A stretch of DNA of 56,504 nucleotides, the filler included, from Ionaspis alba (lineage: Eukaryota): assembly GCA_964255285.1 (NCBI GenBank). It is 3 parts of 3 records of this genome, joined end to end, with 100 filler letters (N's around TTAATTAATTAA, not from the genome) between each part and the next. Parts side by side here need not be neighbours in the genome. Positions count along the whole stretch, not along the records: positions 18,916 to 37,683 come from CAXUUL010000282.1; 2 more parts are not named here. One strand, written 5' to 3'. A program made the position numbers and the translations under genes. Position 1 is the stretch's first letter, and the number at the start of each line of letters is the position of its first letter. Below are positions 18,816 through 53,677 of this stretch, one piece after another. The notes under the pieces are model-generated. The model ran no database searches. It saw only the letters and a list, made by a program, of their open reading frames with translations, and had not been told where the DNA came from.

Positions 18816-18915
18816 NNNNNNNNNNNNNNNNNNNNNNNNNNNNNNNNNNNNNNNNNNNNTTAATTAATTAANNNNNNNNNNNNNNNNNNNNNNNNNNNNN
18901 NNNNNNNNNNNNNNN
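18816..18915. other. Artificial contig linker (N44-TTAATTAATTAA-N44)
   Basis: TTAATTAATTAA at 18860-18871 gives stops in all six frames and sits centred in a 100-nt N block. Confidence 0.95.
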
Positions 18916-19734
18916 GGGGACCTTCTTATCACAGTGGAACATGAGATGTGAACAACGATTATACTAGATAGGGATATCTGCATGTAATAGTGCTAAGCAA
19001 TCTCTAGGCTTCTACGGCCTTCGTGTCTTCATATCTCGTCGTTCAACAGTCCAGCAGGAGGTGAGTTTGACTACGTACAAATTAAAGACGAGTTTATGTG
19101 ACGGTTGGTGTAGCATTATTATATGGCGGGTTGGTTTCGAGTGGACCAAGCTAGGGTTGTAGTGCTACGATCCACCAAGGCCGAGGATAGATTATCATAT
19201 CACCGGCCAGAGCTTGGCGCCGCGCGAGGAGGGAATAGGATAGTCTTACGCGGGATACGGGGTGCTCTAATTAATCCTAATTCTCAATTTCTCCCATGCC
19301 TCAGTGGTCAACATTATTACATTTCGAGCTCCTTGCCCAAGGCTTCCTTGGACTCAGTACTTGGTACCCGTTATTCTCTTGCTCATTTGCGGGCGACGAT
19401 CTTCGCAGCTTTTGCATATCGCCGACGCTATAGGGCTATCGCTGTCTCACTCTACCTCACACTTTCTATGAGCCTAGTTCTTTCCTTCGCTGGTAGAGAC
19501 CTCATCGTCCCCTCAGAGCTCATGTAACCTAGCAAGCTGGCGTCGCACTCAGCCACTTTGCAGAACACCCAAGACACGCAGCGCAGACGTCGCTCTTCAA
19601 GCGTCAAGTCGTCGCCGAGTTCAATTTTACAAACGTCTGCCACAACCAATAGCATTGGGGCCGCGTCCGGGCTTACGGCGCGCGTTCTTGCGCAGTCATT
19701 GCCTACAATACCCGGAACACCTGCCAACGACGAC

Positions 19735-21265
19735 ATGTCTCTGTCTCGATCCCCATCACCCAGGGCCGGTGGAGGATGGGCTAGTCCAGGCTTGACGAGT
19801 CCGTTCGATACCATCAGTGGCCGCTCCTCTCCGCGCAAGGGATACTCTGACGTATACACGAATGGAGGACCAGGATCGAACGGGGTTACATGGTCCTCTG
19901 CGAAGGCCAGAAGTGAAGAGATCAAGGGATATCCATCGTTTTCAACCAGAAACAATGGCTTCTTCTCGAGACATGCGCGACAGATCTCCCATAGCCTACC
20001 TAAGTTCAACATCAGTAGAGGGAAAGATTACGCAGAGAAAGAGAAGCTTGGCAGAGGCCGGTGGTACCCGCAGGGTGGAAATAGCCTCGGACGATTGAGG
20101 ACATTCCTCGGGTCTGCTTCAAGACGGATGATGTTACCAATATTGCTGATTTTGGGGTTTCTACTAACGATAATCCTCTTCTACGCTACACGTAGGTCCC
20201 CTGCATGCTTTACATCCTCAAAATCATCGTGCTGACTCTGATTAGCTATTCACCGTCTTTATCGAAGAACCTCTTTCCTTGGTGGTGGAAGCAAGTTTGT
20301 CGTTGTCCTCGCAGCGAATCAGGGCGGTGGAGTTATGGAGTGGAAGGGCCCACGAGAGTGGGCTATCGAGAGAGATAGCGTGAAGAATAAGAAACGATAC
20401 GTGAAGAAATGGGGTTATGATCTGGAGATCGTCGACATGAGCACGAAGAAACGATACGCGCACGAGTGGAGGGAGAGCTGGGAGAAGGTGGACACTATGA
20501 GGAATTGCATGCGGAAATACCCCAAAGCTGAATGGTGCTGTGCCTGTGTCCAGTTGTCGATATTACGTCTGACTGACGTCCAAATCTAGGTTTTGGTGGC
20601 TTGATCTGAACACCTTTATAATGGAGCCTTCCTACTCCCTCCAATCGCATATCTTCAATCACCTTGCGAAAAACACCTACCGCGACATCAACATCTACAA
20701 TCCCCTTAACATTACCCACCCCCTCAAAGACCAACACCTAGATTCCGTCTGCCGTTCACGAGAAGGCGACGGTGATCCGAGGTCAATTGACCTCATCGTC
20801 CCTCAGGACTGCAGTGGATTCAATCTTGGCTCTTTCTTCTTGAGACGATCCGAATGGACAGATCGTTTGTTGGACATTTGGTGGGATCCGGTCGCCTATG
20901 AACAGAAACACATGGAGTGGGAACACAAAGAACAAGATGCTTTGGAGCATCTCTACACCAACCAACCATGGGTAAGACCCCACACCGCATTCATTCCCCA
21001 AAGGAAGATCAACAGCTTTCCTACCGGTGCTTGCAGCGAAAATGGCGAGGATCCTCGCATCCACTATAAAGAGCTCGATCGAGATTTCGTTGTAAACATG
21101 GCTGGCTGTGAATGGGGTCGAGACTGCTGGGGTGAGATGTATAATTTCCGCGAGTTGAGCAACAAGCTCAATAGAACGCCATGGGAGAAGTTCAAGGATG
21201 GGCTGAGCGCTCAGGTGAAAAGGCTGACCGAGAAAAAGAAGGCGGAGGAGGAGAAGAAGTCGTAA
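19735..21265 (+). CDS. MNN10: Golgi alpha-1,6-mannosyltransferase subunit (GT34)
   Basis: Exons 19735-20191, 20246-20534, 20590-21265. Type II TM segment; LAANQGGGVMEWKG, RYAHEWRESWEKVD, WFWWLD, QDCSGFNLGSF, WEHKEQDALE, NMAGCEWGRDCW. Confidence 0.92.
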
Positions 21266-22078: not shown

Positions 22079-23537
22079 TTAGGCTCTGACCACACTGCCA
22101 TTGCCCCACCGCAGCCGCTTCAGTCCAGCATTTCCACCAACGTAGCCCTTCCCAACCTCCTTTGCGCAGGTAATCCCACTGCCAGATGAACCTCCCACAG
22201 CTTCCATACGACCCACCTCTTTTCCGTATGCAAAGCCGGCCGAGAAGCTGATGGCGCTGAAAAGTACCACCACTCCGGCGCTGACAAGCCAGGTCATGAG
22301 TGTAGGACTAATAAGAATCTCCTCGACAGCGTTACCATTACTACTTCGCCGCTTTTTCTTTGTGTCTCGGCGGTCTCGAGATACGGACTTCCGCTTCCCT
22401 TTGCCTTGCCCGGAGCTTGGGGAGATGGAGGAAGTGAAAGAGGCACGGCGTGGCATGGGAGATGCATTCCGGGAGGATTCTGTGGCTCGGAGAGTTGACT
22501 CCGACACCATTCGAATGGAAGAAGGCTCGATGCGATTCGGATTCGACGGGCCTGCAGTGTGTACACGACCCGACGCTTCGCGCTTGGGTAGACCACGGGC
22601 TGCAGCGGCACAAGAAAGGAGTGTTGAGAGAGATGCACGAAGAGCAGCATCATGATCCGCAGTATAGGAGGGCGAGATCATGTTGTACGGAGTGTGGCTT
22701 CTACGGGGTTGGTGATGTGTAGGGTACGAATGACGCTGCCGTTGGGTGCTCGAGGCCGAGGCGGTAGAACGATTCGGGAACAGATCTGTTGCAGATGACT
22801 GTCTTTGCGTAGGGAAGTAAGACTCTGGCCGAGAGGTGGTATTTCCAGCTCTTGATGCCGGAGGGTGCGAAAAAGCATTTGGCTGTGGTGTAAAGACAGG
22901 CTCAACGGTGTTGATGCCTAGGGCTGTAGAATTTTCATCATCGTCAGACGTAGATTGTGCATCTGATGAGGTAGCTGGAGGGCTTTCTTCCTGTGCAAAC
23001 TGAGGATGGACGTCCTCATTCGAGCTGCTAAGTAGGCGGTCTGACTCGCTTTCGCTTTCTTCATACTCTTCTTGGCTGCTGCCCGCAGCACTTAAAGGCC
23101 GTGTCTGATTTTCTCCATTAGGTTGCACATTGCCTGACCGATGAAGTCTTCGTCTCCGTCTGTTGTTGAGCGTGTTTTGCAGCCTCAACCCAGGCTGAAC
23201 GATTTCTTCGGCGTTGATAGAAGATAGAGAGGACGAAGAGGGTTGCGAACAGACCTCAATCCAAGACTCTGTATAGTAATCAAATGAGTATATATTTTCC
23301 ATGATGACGAGCAGGGTTTTGATGCGCCTCTGATGCAACTTTGAAGTCGAAAGTGGGGAAAAGGCAGGATCGGCGAGATCGAAGTCGAAGTACAGGACTT
23401 GACATACCTTCTGACCTTGACCGTCTGACACCAGAGACTGACCGAATGATTCCTGGAGGGTGTTGCGGTTGCTGTAAGGTGCGATGAGTATTATTCTCTC
23501 GACCGTGTGGGTAATGATCCCGACTTGTAGGCTGCAT
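22079..23537 (-). CDS. Uncharacterised Ser-rich, C-terminally membrane-anchored protein (~439 aa)
   Basis: Exons 23537-23408 and 23268-22079 (GTATGT donor, TATACAG acceptor, in frame). Mostly low complexity; one hydrophobic segment LMTWLVSAGVVVLFSAISFSAGFAYG near the C-terminus. Confidence 0.8.
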
Positions 23538-24710: not shown

Positions 24711-26422
24711 TTAGAATGTCATCTTCTTGCCTTGAAAATCACCAAATCCGCCGCGGTTGGTAGACCCTCCTCGACCACCACGAGATCCACCTCGACCGCC
24801 ACGATCGCCAAAACCACCACGGCCACGGCCCCCTCCACGTCCACCACGGTCGCTACCACGCCCACGTCCACCTCCGAACCCACCACCGCGTCCACCGCGA
24901 GGCGAGCCTCCGGTGGAAGCGCGAGCGTGTCCGTAATCGAGGCGAATAGGACGACCACAGATGGCAGCGCCCTTCATAGCTTCGAAGGCGGCTTTGGAGT
25001 CTTCGATCGACGCGAATTCGACGTAGCCAAAGCCCTTAGGATTGCCAGTTTCCTGATCGGTAGGGAGACGCACGCCGACGACTGTGCCATGATTGCCAAA
25101 TTCCTCCCCAATAATATCTTCCGTGGCATCGAAAGAGATGTTTCCGACAAAAAGTGTGCTACTTGGCTCACTTGGCTGGTCGCCGAAAGATTTGGCACGA
25201 TCGTTGGCCTTGTTCTGGTAGTTGCCACCGGCATTGTCCCGAGGAACAGCGAAATCAACATTAATCTCGCGGCCATCGATCATTTTCCCCTTCATGGCAC
25301 CGTGGGCCTTTGTGGCATCAGCCGCATTGACGTATTCAACATATCCGAATCTATAGAGCTGTTGTTAACTCAACAAGTTCACTGATTTGCAGATGGGTAG
25401 GGTGAGCTTACCCCTTTGACCGCCCAGTTGCCTTGTCAGAGATAACGCGCACGCCGGAAAGCTCCCCAAAACCGCCAAACTCCCTGGTGAGCATTTCCTC
25501 ATCCACATTCCAGGAAAGAGAGCCGACGAAGAGATTCTTCACTTCTTCGCTTCCGCCCTCGATAGCTTCCTTCTTCGCTTTCTTCGCAACTGGAGCTGCT
25601 TCGATTTCGGCTTTGCGCTTCTTGGGTGGTGCTTCATCCTCACTCTCATCTGAATCAGAGTCAGAAGAGGATTCAGATTCAGCAGATTCACCCTCGACGC
25701 CGGAGTTCTCATCATTACCAGAGTCATCGCTATCATCGGTGCCAGAGTCGTCCTCGGATAACTGTTGAATAGATCAGTATCATTCGTTACCATAAAGAAA
25801 CTTGAAGACAACAAACCTCTTTGCCAGCAATATTTTTTATTGCACCGTTCAAAGCCTTGGCATCCACGGGCCCTTTCGGCTTTGTCTCCTCGTCGCTAAC
25901 ACTCTCATCGCTCTCTTCAGAGTCTTCTTCTTCGTCCTCGTCGTCCTCGTCCTCGTCTTCGGCATCCGATTCTTCTTTGGCAGCTTGAACAGGAACGGCT
26001 GTTGCAGGGACAGCTTCCTCATCAGACGAGTCGGAAGAGTCGGACGACGCGGAATCTTCCTTGGCTAGAGACTTGTCGACGCCATTCGCTTTGCCATTTA
26101 ATTTCCCGTCGACATCAGCTGTGACTGGAATTGCGACATCCGCCTCCGAATCACTACTCTCGGAGCTAGAGCTAGACACGACGTCTTCTTCGCTCTCTCC
26201 ACTACTCGGCTCCGGAGTAGGCTCTTTAATGACCTTCTTTGCTTTATTCTCCTTCTTCATGGCCTTGTCCGCTTTGCCGGCAACCTGCTTAGCGATCTCC
26301 TGGCTCTTGGCCTTGGGAGTCTGGGATGGTTTAGTTACAGCGCCTTGCTTGACAGAGGAAATCGTTTTGACCTCTTCGGCCTTAATAGGCTTTGCGACCT
26401 TGATCGATTTTGATTTGGCCAT
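24711..26422 (-). CDS. NSR1: Nucleolin-like nucleolar protein (Nsr1/Gar2)
   Basis: Exons 26422-25817, 25761-25412, 25350-24711. Acidic/Ser-rich N-terminus, two RRMs (LFVGSLSWNVD...SKGFGYVEY; LFVGNISF...PKGFGYVEF), RGG tail ending FQGKKMTF. Confidence 0.93.
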
Positions 26423-26639
26423 TTTTTTCTTTTGATATCCTGTGCGACTAAGGTGGACTCGATGTATCAGCAAATGAGACTGGAAGACATTGAGAGTCCA
26501 GGGGAGAAATTGTTTGTGGAAAATGAAGGGAAGAGGAGGCTATACTTCCAATATGTCTCTAGTTTGCGGTCAAGATTCTCTCCTGGAATCTTATTGTGCG
26601 GCAAGCCCTCTGAATGTGTGTTGGTAAAACCTTAAGTCA

Positions 26640-30252: not shown

Positions 30253-31093
30253 GAGAGGTGAAGCTTTAGAGGTTCCAAGAATAGAGGTCTACGCCGAAGC
30301 AAGCTGGCTTGCTCATAAATCCATTTCGCATGCACAACTTTCGTCACTTTTTACACGCTGTACCTATAACAAAATCTGATGTAGCTGGCGACCAGCTCTC
30401 TGGGATTCACGTAGGAATAATGGTTGACCATCGTTGAGTCTTGTGGAAGTGAACCCTGCAATGGAATTTGTCCGTAGACTCATCTGCGAGTGCAGACATG
30501 TCTTTGCCCTTACGAATCATTTACGCAGCACGATCGGACCTTTTGCGTGAATAGGTGTTGGGATATATTAGCTGGGAACATAGGTACTCCTGAACGCAAT
30601 GACTTCTCGCTAACATAGGCAATTTTAAGCTGCAGATTTGGAAGGTTGCTGGTGTTTGGAGCACCTTTTTGGTTGCTATCCAGACTTCGAAGGTTTAGAT
30701 GTTTCAGCGGGCAAGGCTCACGATCAGTTTTGTTGCCACGTCACATTTAGCGTATCAATATAATCACTAACCAACGTTGAAGCCTTGAGAGGCTTCCCAC
30801 CTCTCTACGTCACCCCACAATTTTGAATTGGTGCCGGGGTTATTTCGCTAAGGATTGTCCTAATTGTGTAGCGGCAACGGAACCTGTCACCGAGCCACCG
30901 GNNNNNNNNNNNNNNNNNNNNNNNNNNNNNNNNNNNNNNNNNNNNNNNNNNNNNNNNNNNNNNNNNNNNNNNNNNNNNNNNNNNNNNNNNNNNNNNNNNN
31001 NCGGATGTTGCAACTTTGATCAGCGGCCGTGAAGTCGCATAAAATCTTCGGTAGTGATACTCCCTTTTAGTCACTACGCATGATATCAAAGTT

Positions 31094-37683: not shown

Positions 37684-37783
37684 NNNNNNNNNNNNNNNNN
37701 NNNNNNNNNNNNNNNNNNNNNNNNNNNTTAATTAATTAANNNNNNNNNNNNNNNNNNNNNNNNNNNNNNNNNNNNNNNNNNNN
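37684..37783. other. Artificial contig linker (N44-TTAATTAATTAA-N44)
   Basis: Same six-frame-stop spacer at 37728-37739. Confidence 0.95.
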
Positions 37784-42585: not shown

Positions 42586-43743
42586 NNNNNNNNNNNNNNN
42601 NNNNNNNNNNNNNNNNNNNNNNNNNNNNNNNNNNNNNNNNNNNNNNNNNNNNNNNNNNNNNNNNNNNNNNNNNNNNNNNNNNNNNAAAAGCGGAAATGCC
42701 GTTGTACAATTGCTGCATCACATGTCGATACAGTCATAGACTTGCTCTGGCAAATTTGGTGGATCAGGGGGATAGAGCTCGGGTAGAATTTGGAGAGTAG
42801 GAATACATCTGGGCAATTGTCGTATAGTGTATCAATACAATCATGTTGTTCTGACATCGTAAAACGCGTTGAGGAGGATGACGCTGAAGCATCATGTGCC
42901 ATGTTTTGATCAGTGACCTCATTCTGGAGTGCACTGAAAGAATTCGAGATAGATGGTGAGGTGTAATTACTGAGGAAAGTATTAAAACCTTCCGGACTAA
43001 GCCTAATCCGGGTATAACTCATCCGAATGCTACTCCCGTTTTCCACCCTTCGACAGCACCCGTTTATAGACGAATCAAACGTGCTAGTTTTGGCGCTGTA
43101 TAGATAATGAACGCCAAGCTCTTCACCTGAGAGGTTCATACAGTCATCAATCCTTTGACAGCAACGCTGCGCTACTGGCCAAGCAAAAGAACAAGAACAT
43201 TCCGAGGTTATCCACGTAGACCGACTCAATGTTCAGTATACGAGCTGCATCTCAAGTCGGCCACTAAAAGTCGGTGACGGCAAATGTAACACCCTGTGGT
43301 CTGGGGCGCTCTCTGGTACGGGACCAAAACGGTACATACCTACCGTTGTCAATACGAAAGATGCAGCCACCGCTAGGACAGACCTAGCCAGTGTCGACTT
43401 CGGTCCTCCTCCAGAGAAGCAGGATAGTAATACTTCGGTCAACTACAACATGGCTCTCTTGGCTCTTGAGCCCAGTGATCCTGAGCCGTCTTTGGCTTCG
43501 ATCTGAACAGTCGGATACGAGTCTGACCTCGAGTTGCGCAATTAATAGTTCTCTGTCTCTCCAGCTGAGCAGCCATGCCAGCACCCAGTGGTGGGGAATC
43601 GGCTTATAAATAGGCAAAAGAAGTCCTTGAATCAGATCTCATTCTCATCTACATCCATTGAAACATCAAACCCTTTGCGGTCAAAGACCTTTCACATCCT
43701 ACTCGTTCAATCCAACGCCCACTACAAATTCTCACAGAAGAAG

Positions 43744-49991: not shown

Positions 49992-50694
49992 TGGGAAGAG
50001 TGGTGCGTTGTGCTCATCGGAGATAGAAGTGGTGTGCGTTGCCAGAGGTGGATTTCGTTGTTGAACTTTCTCGAAGCCTGNNNNNNNNNNNNNNNNNNNN
50101 NNNNNNNNNNNNNNNNNNNNNNNNNNNNNNNNNNNNNNNNNNNNNNNNNNNNNNNNNNNNNNNNNNNNNNNNNNNNNNNNGAAGTGGTGTGCGTTGCCAG
50201 AGGTGGATTTCGTTGTTGAACTTTCTCGAAGCCTGAAGGGAAGAAGATTAATGAAGCGATTTAGCGCATGATGTTTGCAAAATCAGCATTGGAAGTGGGA
50301 TGCATTGGCGAGGCGAAAGTGGCGAAAAGGAGACTGGCGTTCAAAAGATGAAACGATGTTGGATATTTAGCTATATATGGAAATCATTTGATGAATCACG
50401 ATATCTAATGGCTGCTCAGATAAGCAGGCTGGCGTTTCCGACGACGTTATAGTCAATTGACAGTTCGACGACCACATTCATATCAGGGCATTCAAAGACA
50501 GACCTTCGAAAATTATATGTGTATTAGCCGTCACTCAAATCAACCGCGACCAAGTACACCACAAACGCTCGAAAAATGCAAACAATTCACAAACAAACAT
50601 TCACTCATTCCAGCTCACCTCTACCGGCACCCACGCCCGCAAGAACGCCGTTTTCCCCACCACAACCGCTCTCATATCCCAACCCCCACTCCGC

Positions 50695-51923: not shown

Positions 51924-53677
51924 GGTTAGGTTAGGAGAAAGGTCGGTCTCAAAGATGCAAGATTGACGCAGATCGTGGTGGTTCGACGGCCGTGAAAAGA
52001 CTACACACTTGGAACAAAGGCAGCGATACGCAAAGACAAGATCTCGGGATGACGAGTCTCGGCTATTTTGATCGTGGCTGTTAGACTAGCGAGATAGGCG
52101 CTGTGGTTGTTGAGCACTATATCCGACTGTCCTAGGCCTGCGTGCTTCATTCCCTCCAAATACAACCATCAATTACAACGTTTACCATTGTTAAGCAGAT
52201 CGTCCCCCAATTTAAGTCTCTCGATAGAAGCTTTCGATGCGATATCTTATACGTGACTCCTTTGATACCGGCGAAGCTAAGCTACATGCGATTGGATGGC
52301 CCAGACGATAAAGATCTGCTGGCAATCTTCAGTGTGAGCCATTCATCTAATACCAAGGTCAAAACCTCATCTATGGCGTATTTCACAGCGAAGAGACAGC
52401 AAATCTGTATAGTTGGCAAGCTACCCGCTACTTGCCGTGGTCTTCAGCCCAAATTCGGTTCGAGGAATGAGGATCACTATTGAAGTATAAGCAGGACCTA
52501 CCGGCGCAGGAGTAGAAGTCTGACGGGACGAAGATCGAAAGACACATATTCTCCTATCGTGCAAACAGTCCTCATAGCTATACAAGTCAAGGAGTCTCAG
52601 GGGATATTTAGAGCGAAGAACGATGTTCTCTAATTGTCCTATTCTTCCACGTCGATTTCGATCATGACTTTTCATCTCTGTGCTATGCTCTTCACGTGAG
52701 AGCAGTCCTCATCTATCAAACAAGCTGTTACGATTAGCCTATCGTAGCCATGAAACATCTCAGTGCTCTTTGGAAGATTGCAAGAGTTTAGGGGGTAGCA
52801 GAGCGCGGCCTTGCCATCCTGAGAGACAGCTGAACGACAAGAGTGACCTTGAACTGGCGCAATTGAATAATGGACAATACCGAAGCGATTATCTGTCCGA
52901 TCATAGCAAGCATGGCTGGATGGGAGAACGGTCCATGTACGATAGAAGGGAATGACATGGGTTCAGCACCACTGAGAAAAGTAACAACTTGTTTAGCACA
53001 TATAGTGATGACTAATGTCACCTCGATGGTATCCCACATGCACTATTTCGTGTAGGGTCTTCAACCCCCAGACATTTAGATGGCATCAGGATGGGATATG
53101 GGGGACGGGACGCCGCGAAGTCCCAATTACATCACACAGACATCACGTAGAGCACCACTAGCCAAGCATCGGAAAGTATGATGACATAAAACAAGAGCCA
53201 GAAGCAATGAGCCTCCAGTTCTTCATTCAATTGAAAGTGCTANNNNNNNNNNNNNNNNNNNNNNNNNNNNNNNNNNNNNNNNNNNNNNNNNNNNNNNNNN
53301 NNNNNNNNNNNNNNNNNNNNNNNNNNNNNNNNNNNNNNNNNNAAAACAAGAGCCAGAAGCAATGAGCCTCCAGTTCTTCATTCAATTGAAAGTGCTAAGC
53401 AAGCGAGGTCGTTGCCCAAGAGTGTACCGTCCTTGCCTCTCTAACAACAAACCCCCTCTCTATCTCCTTAACGCCGTGCCTGAAGAACGAACAAACGACA
53501 ATAAGTCAGAAGTGTGATGCGAAGGCCGTGAGTAAATGATTGCGCAAGCGATGCCGATGCGCTGGGAAGGCTATGCCGGTGACTCGTCACAGATCGTGAA
53601 AGGCATGTAGGTAAGGTCAAAGCGAGGCGGAGAACAAGCGTGGCGAAGTTTTAGATAGGAGGAAGGAGAAGAGGTCG

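Follow-up and report, generated by a model that had tools for sequence, protein, structure and literature searches.

Does the gene on the minus strand at positions 22,079 to 23,537 of the window analysed here (the whole stretch of 56,504 nucleotides from the lichen-forming ascomycete Ionaspis alba) encode an undescribed receptor for selective autophagy, and if so, for which organelle? Autophagy in filamentous fungi consumes entire nuclei as well as mitochondria and peroxisomes, and the organelle receptors of these fungi are largely unknown because the yeast receptors lack recognisable homologues there (PMC12005406 and PMC11335778, both in part). Aspergillus oryzae degrades whole nuclei, for which the authors infer an unidentified receptor from unpublished atg11 data (PMC11335778, in part). 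An earlier, sequence-only reading described the product as a tail-anchored protein with the motif layout of Atg32, Atg39 or BNIP3, and proposed a role in mitophagy, ER-phagy or nucleophagy. As an observation this is confirmed as a whole: the gene is real and all the motifs quoted from it were located, namely RSEESWIEVCSQPSSSSLSS (W46), EEYEESESESDRLLSSSNED (from residue 110), the basic patch (from residue 335) and SAGFAYGKEVGR (from residue 386). As an interpretation it is partly supported, in that the conservation test was passed and the compartment has shifted to the nuclear envelope or endoplasmic reticulum (ER). The reading that we tentatively favour is that the product may be a single-pass type II protein of the nuclear envelope or ER, acting as a selective-autophagy receptor for cargo from those membranes.

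Gene structure and distribution of the family

Two exons join into a frame of 439 residues with zero internal stops, and the gene, on contig C282, is the single match in the incomplete 18.3-Mb I. alba genome. Its parts are as follows.

23408..23537, minus strand: exon 1, residues 1-43 and the first base of codon 44, ending in the conserved R-x-R-[SN]-[DE]
23269..23407, minus strand: intron of 139 nt, GT..AG, with conserved position and phase
23300..23302, minus strand: in-frame intronic ATG, likely a second start codon for a 407-residue form (P0003) whose N-terminus would be short and rich in Tyr
22079..23268, minus strand: exon 2, residues 44-439 and the stop codon

The intron is real and is supported by relatives. 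Eighty metagenome loci were fetched for the splice comparison, and 49 distinct loci contain the Trp motif discussed below; a YAG acceptor is found at the identical base and phase in 42 of these 49, and an exon 1 ending in R-x-R-[SN]-[DE] before a GT donor recurs in many related loci. Five loci run exon 1 directly into the motif without an intron, among them record L075, which is without the 70-nt intron of genomic locus L069 at 97.5% identity. The likely branch site in these lineages is TACTCA, not the usual consensus (loci L004-L083). The motif had been thought to be created by splicing, but the splice adds only the upstream RSE, because ESWIEV is already readable in the unspliced frame. In 35 of 42 loci the last 60 nt of the intron hold an ATG in the motif frame from which reading stays open as far as the acceptor; each of the other two frames has one in 8 loci. 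The loci are not independent, many of them being from related lichen fungi. A purine stands at -3 of the motif-frame ATG in 29 of the 35. A second, short N-terminus beginning at the intronic ATG is likely.

Directly upstream on the same strand lies a nucleolin/Nsr1-like RRM gene (24711-26539, minus strand), in an order kept in 27 of 32 long related loci, and a multi-exon GT34 (MNN10/GMA12-type) glycosyltransferase gene (19528-21265, plus strand) converges on the locus, with linkage in 3 of 80 loci. Genes across the runs of N (18816-18915, 30902-31001, 37684-37783, 42586-42685, 50081-50180 and 53243-53342) are not real neighbours because contigs are joined there.

A word-indexed search with the 439-residue protein gave 1813 matches among 8000 scored candidates, and a library of 50% clusters gave 258 matches at E<=0.001 and 226 at 1e-10. 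The best 150 of these 258 were listed, and all but one, a fusion of 1101 residues, make up the alignment of 149 rows. Among the matches listed, named members occur in Lecanoromycetes, Eurotiomycetes, Sordariomycetes, Leotiomycetes and Dothideomycetes and are labelled hypothetical or uncharacterised, bar a few labelled "REJ domain" or "glucan 1,4-alpha-glucosidase" at source, names that were set aside since the proteins contain neither domain. The nearest named relatives are lichen-forming Lecanoromycetes (Lambiella, Xylographa), at 62-66% identity. Pfam gave no family for the query, and scattered weak matches only for 110 family members, with BNIP3 and ATG43 absent from the 25 of 27 families listed. 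No match at E<=10 was found among PDB sequences, and the ESM Atlas gave no named cluster, only unnamed Ascomycota clusters. By the tests run, the protein belongs to none of the Atg32, Atg39, Atg43 and BNIP3 sequence families, with the qualification that Pfam may be without models for Atg32 and Atg39. Literature searches on filamentous-fungus receptors, on KASH proteins and on six orthologue locus tags found nothing on the family, most subscription papers and all supplements lying outside their scope; within the literature searched, again exclusive of supplements, neither another documented function nor an experiment on any family member was found.

Conserved motifs of the disordered region

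The part of the protein that precedes the membrane helix carries the motifs on which a receptor function would depend, together with several others.

23252..23269, minus strand: ESWIEV, canonical AIM/LIR-type motif, residues 44-49 (W46), Ser at -1; its first base comes from exon 1 when spliced
23219..23248, minus strand: poly-Ser tract directly after the AIM, residues 51-60, conserved (class conservation 0.83)
23147..23161, minus strand: Arg run, residues 80-84, conserved
23015..23080, minus strand: acidic Ser tract SSQEEYEESESESD and LLSSSNE, residues 107-128, a possible Atg11-binding region with several S-x-x-D/E
22859..22894, minus strand: linear motif FTPQPNAFSHPP, residues 169-180, class conservation 0.90
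22583..22657, minus strand: conserved helix, residues 248-272, class conservation 0.91, the sole soluble helix in the AlphaFold2 model
22496..22525, minus strand: motif with consensus PxxLRLVPES, residues 292-301, conserved

By its sequence ESWIEV is a canonical Atg8-interacting motif (AIM), with predicted docking to Atg8. It is the sole xLIR-type match in exon 2, and its occurrence in one sequence is weak evidence because 480 of 5000 shuffles of the region before the membrane helix also give one such match; its evidential weight comes from its conservation. Among the matches listed, the W of [DE]SW[IV][ED][IVL] is kept in 116 of the 126 divergent rows that span the position, and W-x-x-[LIV] follows in 115 of the 116 rows with an aligned W. 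The ungapped rows among the matches listed number 117, and 115 of them read W[VI]x[VIL], while 114 have Ser at -1. Positions +1 and +3 vary among I, V and L only, as expected of a two-pocket motif, the +3 residue being I in 64, V in 43 and L in 8 of these 117 rows; the variants WIEV, WIEI, WVEI, WIDI and, once, WIDV are found among the same matches. By eye, the remaining 33 of 149 rows are mostly gene models beginning downstream; P0167 and P0232 extend over this stretch but lack the motif. The motif also agrees with the FIR consensus (FIP200/Atg11-type claw) in 114 of 117 rows among the matches listed. Both this consensus and phosphorylation of Ser at -1, a known switch, have been described, and ESWIEV resembles the validated motifs BNIP3 SWVEL and OPTN DSFVEI (PMC7615515, in part). 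Val at +3 had been regarded as tolerated but non-canonical, a view to be dropped, because the AIM consensus is W/F/Y-x-x-L/I/V (PMC5792711, in part) and Npr1 of Schizosaccharomyces pombe binds Atg8 via WIDV (PMC13201548, in part).

The AIM lies near the N-terminus, in a disordered region of the AlphaFold2 model. That model, built with 110 sequences (pTM 0.21), shows disorder throughout except for two helices, which span ~243-267 and ~365-401 when numbered on the spliced protein. Prediction of a complex between a Pezizomycotina Atg8 (P0332, 1-116) and residues 44-133, run without alignment and without controls, gave a score of 0.14 (mark 0.34) and is no evidence either way. The I. alba genome contains Atg8 and Atg11, and the Atg11 claw was located. 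Near its end, I. alba Atg8 (L001:1357-1880) reads YDEHQDLDG, as against YEEHKDEDG in the relatives listed; the fungal sequence is otherwise invariant.

Class conservation was computed per position, and against a median of 0.52 over all positions it reaches 0.92 in the AIM, 0.85 in the Ser-rich second site and 0.87 in the transmembrane helix (TM). Outside the blocks it is 0.33, a figure that is biased low because the blocks were drawn after the alignment was seen. The AIM ranks 28th and LLSSSN 55th of 391 six-residue windows by conservation. A test had been proposed of whether SWIEV, LLSSS and the TM are the conserved islands of the protein; all three are conserved, but the protein has about 16 such blocks in all, and two that the earlier reading does not mention, FTPQPNAFSHPP (0.90) and the helix at residues 248-272 (0.91), are conserved equally well. 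The helix ends L-x-x-A-A-x-x-R, which may be like a Cdc48-binding VIM without the first Arg, and it may also resemble Sin3-binding helices; the 439-residue protein may likewise bear a resemblance to FFAT. What speaks against a receptor is the rank of the AIM, only 28th, and that this helix, the FTPQPNAF block and PxxLRLVPES are conserved alike and are not accounted for by the receptor model.

The second site had been placed about 80 residues beyond the AIM, which holds approximately: the acidic tract begins 64 residues past W46 and LLS lies 76 residues past it. Across the family LLSSSNE (0.85) comes after the acidic tract (0.92), at a median of 74 residues from the W. The S-x-x-D/E sites of residues 107-128 are presumably CK2-type. 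It is plausible that the LLSSSNE region is an Atg11 site. The (I/V)LS signature for Atg11 binding is common to yeast receptors (PMC5792711, in part), and a site of this type had been proposed here. Its Ser-rich character is conserved, but among the matches listed the strict (I/V)LS is found in 21 of 124, as against 95 of 124 for [IVL][LM][ST] and 109 of 124 for SSxE, and the I. alba protein, with LLS, falls outside the strict set.

Membrane topology and rival explanations

Three features at the C-terminal end bear on where the protein sits.

22346..22396, minus strand: bipartite-NLS-like basic pair KRK...KKKR, residues 335-351, ~12 residues before the TM
22223..22309, minus strand: single TM helix, residues 364-392, ending in a small-residue/Gly zipper; pLDDT 86-92
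22082..22222, minus strand: C-tail of 47 residues, probably lumenal, with conserved Cys411, LKRLRW (residues 426-431) and an NGS sequon (residues 433-435)

Counts for the TM, tail and basic pair use the 123 of the 150 listed representatives that fitted the TM pattern, and are thus among the matches listed. Exactly one hydrophobic segment is present in 123 of 123. The tail has a median length of 47 residues (10-90% range 39-59) and a net charge of 0 to +5; its Cys, 19-39 residues from the end, and its basic-Trp motif, mostly 9-13 from the end, are both conserved. Tail-anchored proteins have a single TM within about 30 residues of the C-terminus, and the description of this protein as tail-anchored, apt as regards its single C-terminal TM, is borderline because 47 residues follow. 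In the basic patch two clusters are conserved and the spacer between them varies, as in a classical bipartite nuclear localisation signal (NLS); a classical NLS ahead of a TM is characteristic of proteins of the inner nuclear membrane. In the 70 residues upstream of the TM, 97 of 123 relatives have the pattern [KR][KR]-x(8-18)-K[KR]x[KR], where shuffled sequences predict 5.0.

N-x-S/T sequons are present in the tails of 48 of 123 relatives, against 15.1 expected, and control patterns (reversed, shifted) in 17, 15 and 29 of 123; 52 of 106 tail Asn residues lie within a sequon, compared with 277 of 1503 before the TM. The excess is found both within the Sordario/Leotiomycete clade (25 of 29, 7.0 expected) and outside it (23 of 94, 8.5 expected), all of these among the matches listed. 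In a Sordariomycete set the sequon is present in 107 of 108 tails (24.8 expected), 14-33 residues past the TM in an otherwise variable linker, whereas the closest relatives, a Lecanoromycete set, show no sequon excess (15 of 116 against 8.9 expected; fraction of Asn in sequons 0.18 against 0.19). On the tree the tail sequon is clustered, with 23 parsimony changes against 38.5 with shuffled labels, and a single site passed on by descent may account for much of the signal. The enrichment nevertheless suggests a lumenal tail, hence an ER or nuclear-envelope location and not mitochondria: the C-tail probably faces the lumen, and the NLS-like pair and tail sequons together point to the nuclear envelope or ER. 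The analogy to BNIP3 and Atg32 at mitochondria is thereby disfavoured, and of the three processes once proposed, mitophagy recedes and nucleophagy or ER-phagy fits best.

A receptor in the outer mitochondrial or peroxisomal membrane, of BNIP3/Atg32 type, appears improbable to us. It would leave the NLS-like pair unaccounted for, sequon enrichment has no reason in a compartment without N-glycosylation, and neither BNIP3 nor ATG43 appears among the 25 of 27 Pfam families listed for the 110 members. In its favour are the nearness of S-W-[IV]-E-[IVL] to BNIP3/NIX SWVEL, the Gly zipper at the end of the TM and the net basic tail (0 to +5). A receptor is moreover missing for these processes, since the AIM region of Atg43 is not conserved beyond Schizosaccharomyces (PMC7609059, in part), and AoAtg11 is needed for both mitophagy and pexophagy (PMC9980689, in part).

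It is just as possible that the NLS takes the protein to the inner nuclear membrane, a site at which an AIM would not be expected to function. In S. pombe an outer-nuclear-membrane anchor with a cytosol-facing AIM is sufficient for nucleophagy, while none was supported by an AIM attached to Man1 on its nucleoplasmic face (PMC13201548, in part). Because a nucleoplasmic AIM fails there, in tension with the NLS-like pair, the first rival kept is an inner-nuclear-membrane scaffold or tethered nuclear regulator, routed by the NLS, with the disordered part in the nucleoplasm, the acidic-Trp motif and helix binding nuclear partners and not Atg8, and perhaps released by proteolysis. We consider this rather unlikely, although the bipartite pattern and the conserved Arg run suit it, lumenal-type sequons fit it equally, many of the conserved blocks are superfluous for a simple receptor, and acidic-aromatic motifs are also generally known to bind domains other than Atg8. 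Three observations stand against it: the motif agrees with the AIM/FIR consensus at each position, Ser at -1 being present in 114 of 117; like known receptors, the protein has its motif close to the N-terminal end of a disordered stretch; and neither Pfam nor the AlphaFold2 model shows a DNA-binding or other domain.

Less likely again is an Atg8 binder that is not a cargo receptor, such as an adaptor or contact-site protein of the ER or nuclear envelope that uses its AIM for its own turnover or for phagophore-ER tethering. It shares the evidence on AIM and topology, and the weak (I/V)LS match and extra conserved blocks leave room for other main functions; preservation of the motif over five fungal classes with phosphorylatable flanks looks more like a regulated core function. 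That an outer-nuclear-membrane protein of KASH type, whose short lumenal tail binds a SUN protein, has the AIM as an added feature seems very improbable. KASH proteins have a short lumenal peptide ending in prolines, which the TM and short tail with Cys and basic-Trp motif resemble loosely, but the tail is 47 residues long, variable in length and without terminal prolines, and the TM-tail piece is without a KASH match in Pfam. Searches for KASH and ATG43 in the incomplete I. alba genome were blank, and the controls were silent too. For the Atg8 binder there is a precedent in Atg43, a membrane protein with a second, autophagy-independent role (PMC7609059, in part).

Under the nuclear-envelope or ER receptor that we tentatively favour, the N-terminal part would face the cytosol and the tail the lumen, where many lineages would glycosylate it. 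Binding of the AIM to Atg8 on the phagophore would be switched on once Ser at -1 and the Ser tracts beside it are phosphorylated, and Atg11 would be recruited by the second Ser-rich site or, in a FIR-type role, by the AIM. Through its basic pair the protein would become concentrated at the nuclear envelope, and it may be retained at the inner membrane until it is required. The tail Cys and basic-Trp motif would touch either the inner membrane or a partner in the lumen, in the manner of the Atg39 lumenal domain. A more specific version, which we judge unlikely, is that the family is the missing receptor for whole-nucleus autophagy in multinucleate filamentous fungi, with importin-dependent storage at the inner membrane hiding the AIM, and with relocation to the outer membrane, phosphorylation and the two N-termini (Arg-rich exon 1 or Tyr-rich intronic start) marking single nuclei. 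A receptor for nuclei would explain how one nucleus is selected in a shared cytoplasm. Against the receptor reading, nuclear degeneration in Magnaporthe oryzae reportedly needs non-selective autophagy.

Comparison with known receptors

Comparison across the family establishes, at the level of sequence, a conserved gene structure, a disordered N-terminal part, one TM and a short tail, with the AIM, Ser/acidic tracts, basic pair and tail motifs all conserved. This makes the family a concrete and widely shared receptor candidate, in which specified residues can be mutated in the usual laboratory moulds. Two reviews and an A. oryzae study, all of 2026, name no such receptor (PMC13208281, PMC13757524 and PMC13696596, all in part), and 32 two-hybrid candidates for MoAtg8 have been tabulated (PMC10938464, in part). 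AIM-dependent Atg8 binders of selective autophagy described in filamentous fungi include AeiA of A. oryzae, which lacks a TM and carries a peroxisomal signal at its end (PMC12005406), and MoAti1 of M. oryzae, which is a SUN-family protein (PMC10938464, in part); by sequence, neither matches the layout of the candidate family.

With Atg32 the candidate shares an AIM followed by a Ser-rich, CK2-type site (PMC9980689 and PMC5792711, both in part), but the strict (I/V)LS is found in 21 of 124, no homology was seen and the targeting features differ. The likeness to BNIP3/NIX lies in the S-W-V-E-L-type LIR with Ser at -1 (PMC7615515, in part), the disordered region and the one C-terminal TM; the candidate differs in its longer tail, its sequons and its NLS-like pair, and in having no Pfam match to them among the 25 of 27 families listed.

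The closest parallels in layout are the nucleophagy receptors. Atg39 is a type II single-pass protein with an N-terminal cytosolic AIM, then an Atg11-binding region and a lumenal C-terminal part, and it acts from the outer membrane (PMC8575018, in part). The candidate family shares the type II single-pass layout with an N-terminal AIM, but there is no detectable homology, and Atg39 is confined to budding yeasts (PMC13201548, in part). The lumenal domain of Atg39 has ~230 residues, as against a tail of 47 in the candidate, whose part before the TM has ~360, and the candidate adds the NLS-like pair and several extra conserved blocks. Npr1 has an N-terminal AIM of nearly the same sequence, WIDV, but is multi-pass and S. 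pombe-specific (PMC13201548, in part), whereas the candidate is single-pass and found in several classes. The best reading of these likenesses is that the candidate would work like Atg39 and Npr1 without detectable homology to either, and if this is true, it would stand beside them as an independently evolved receptor.
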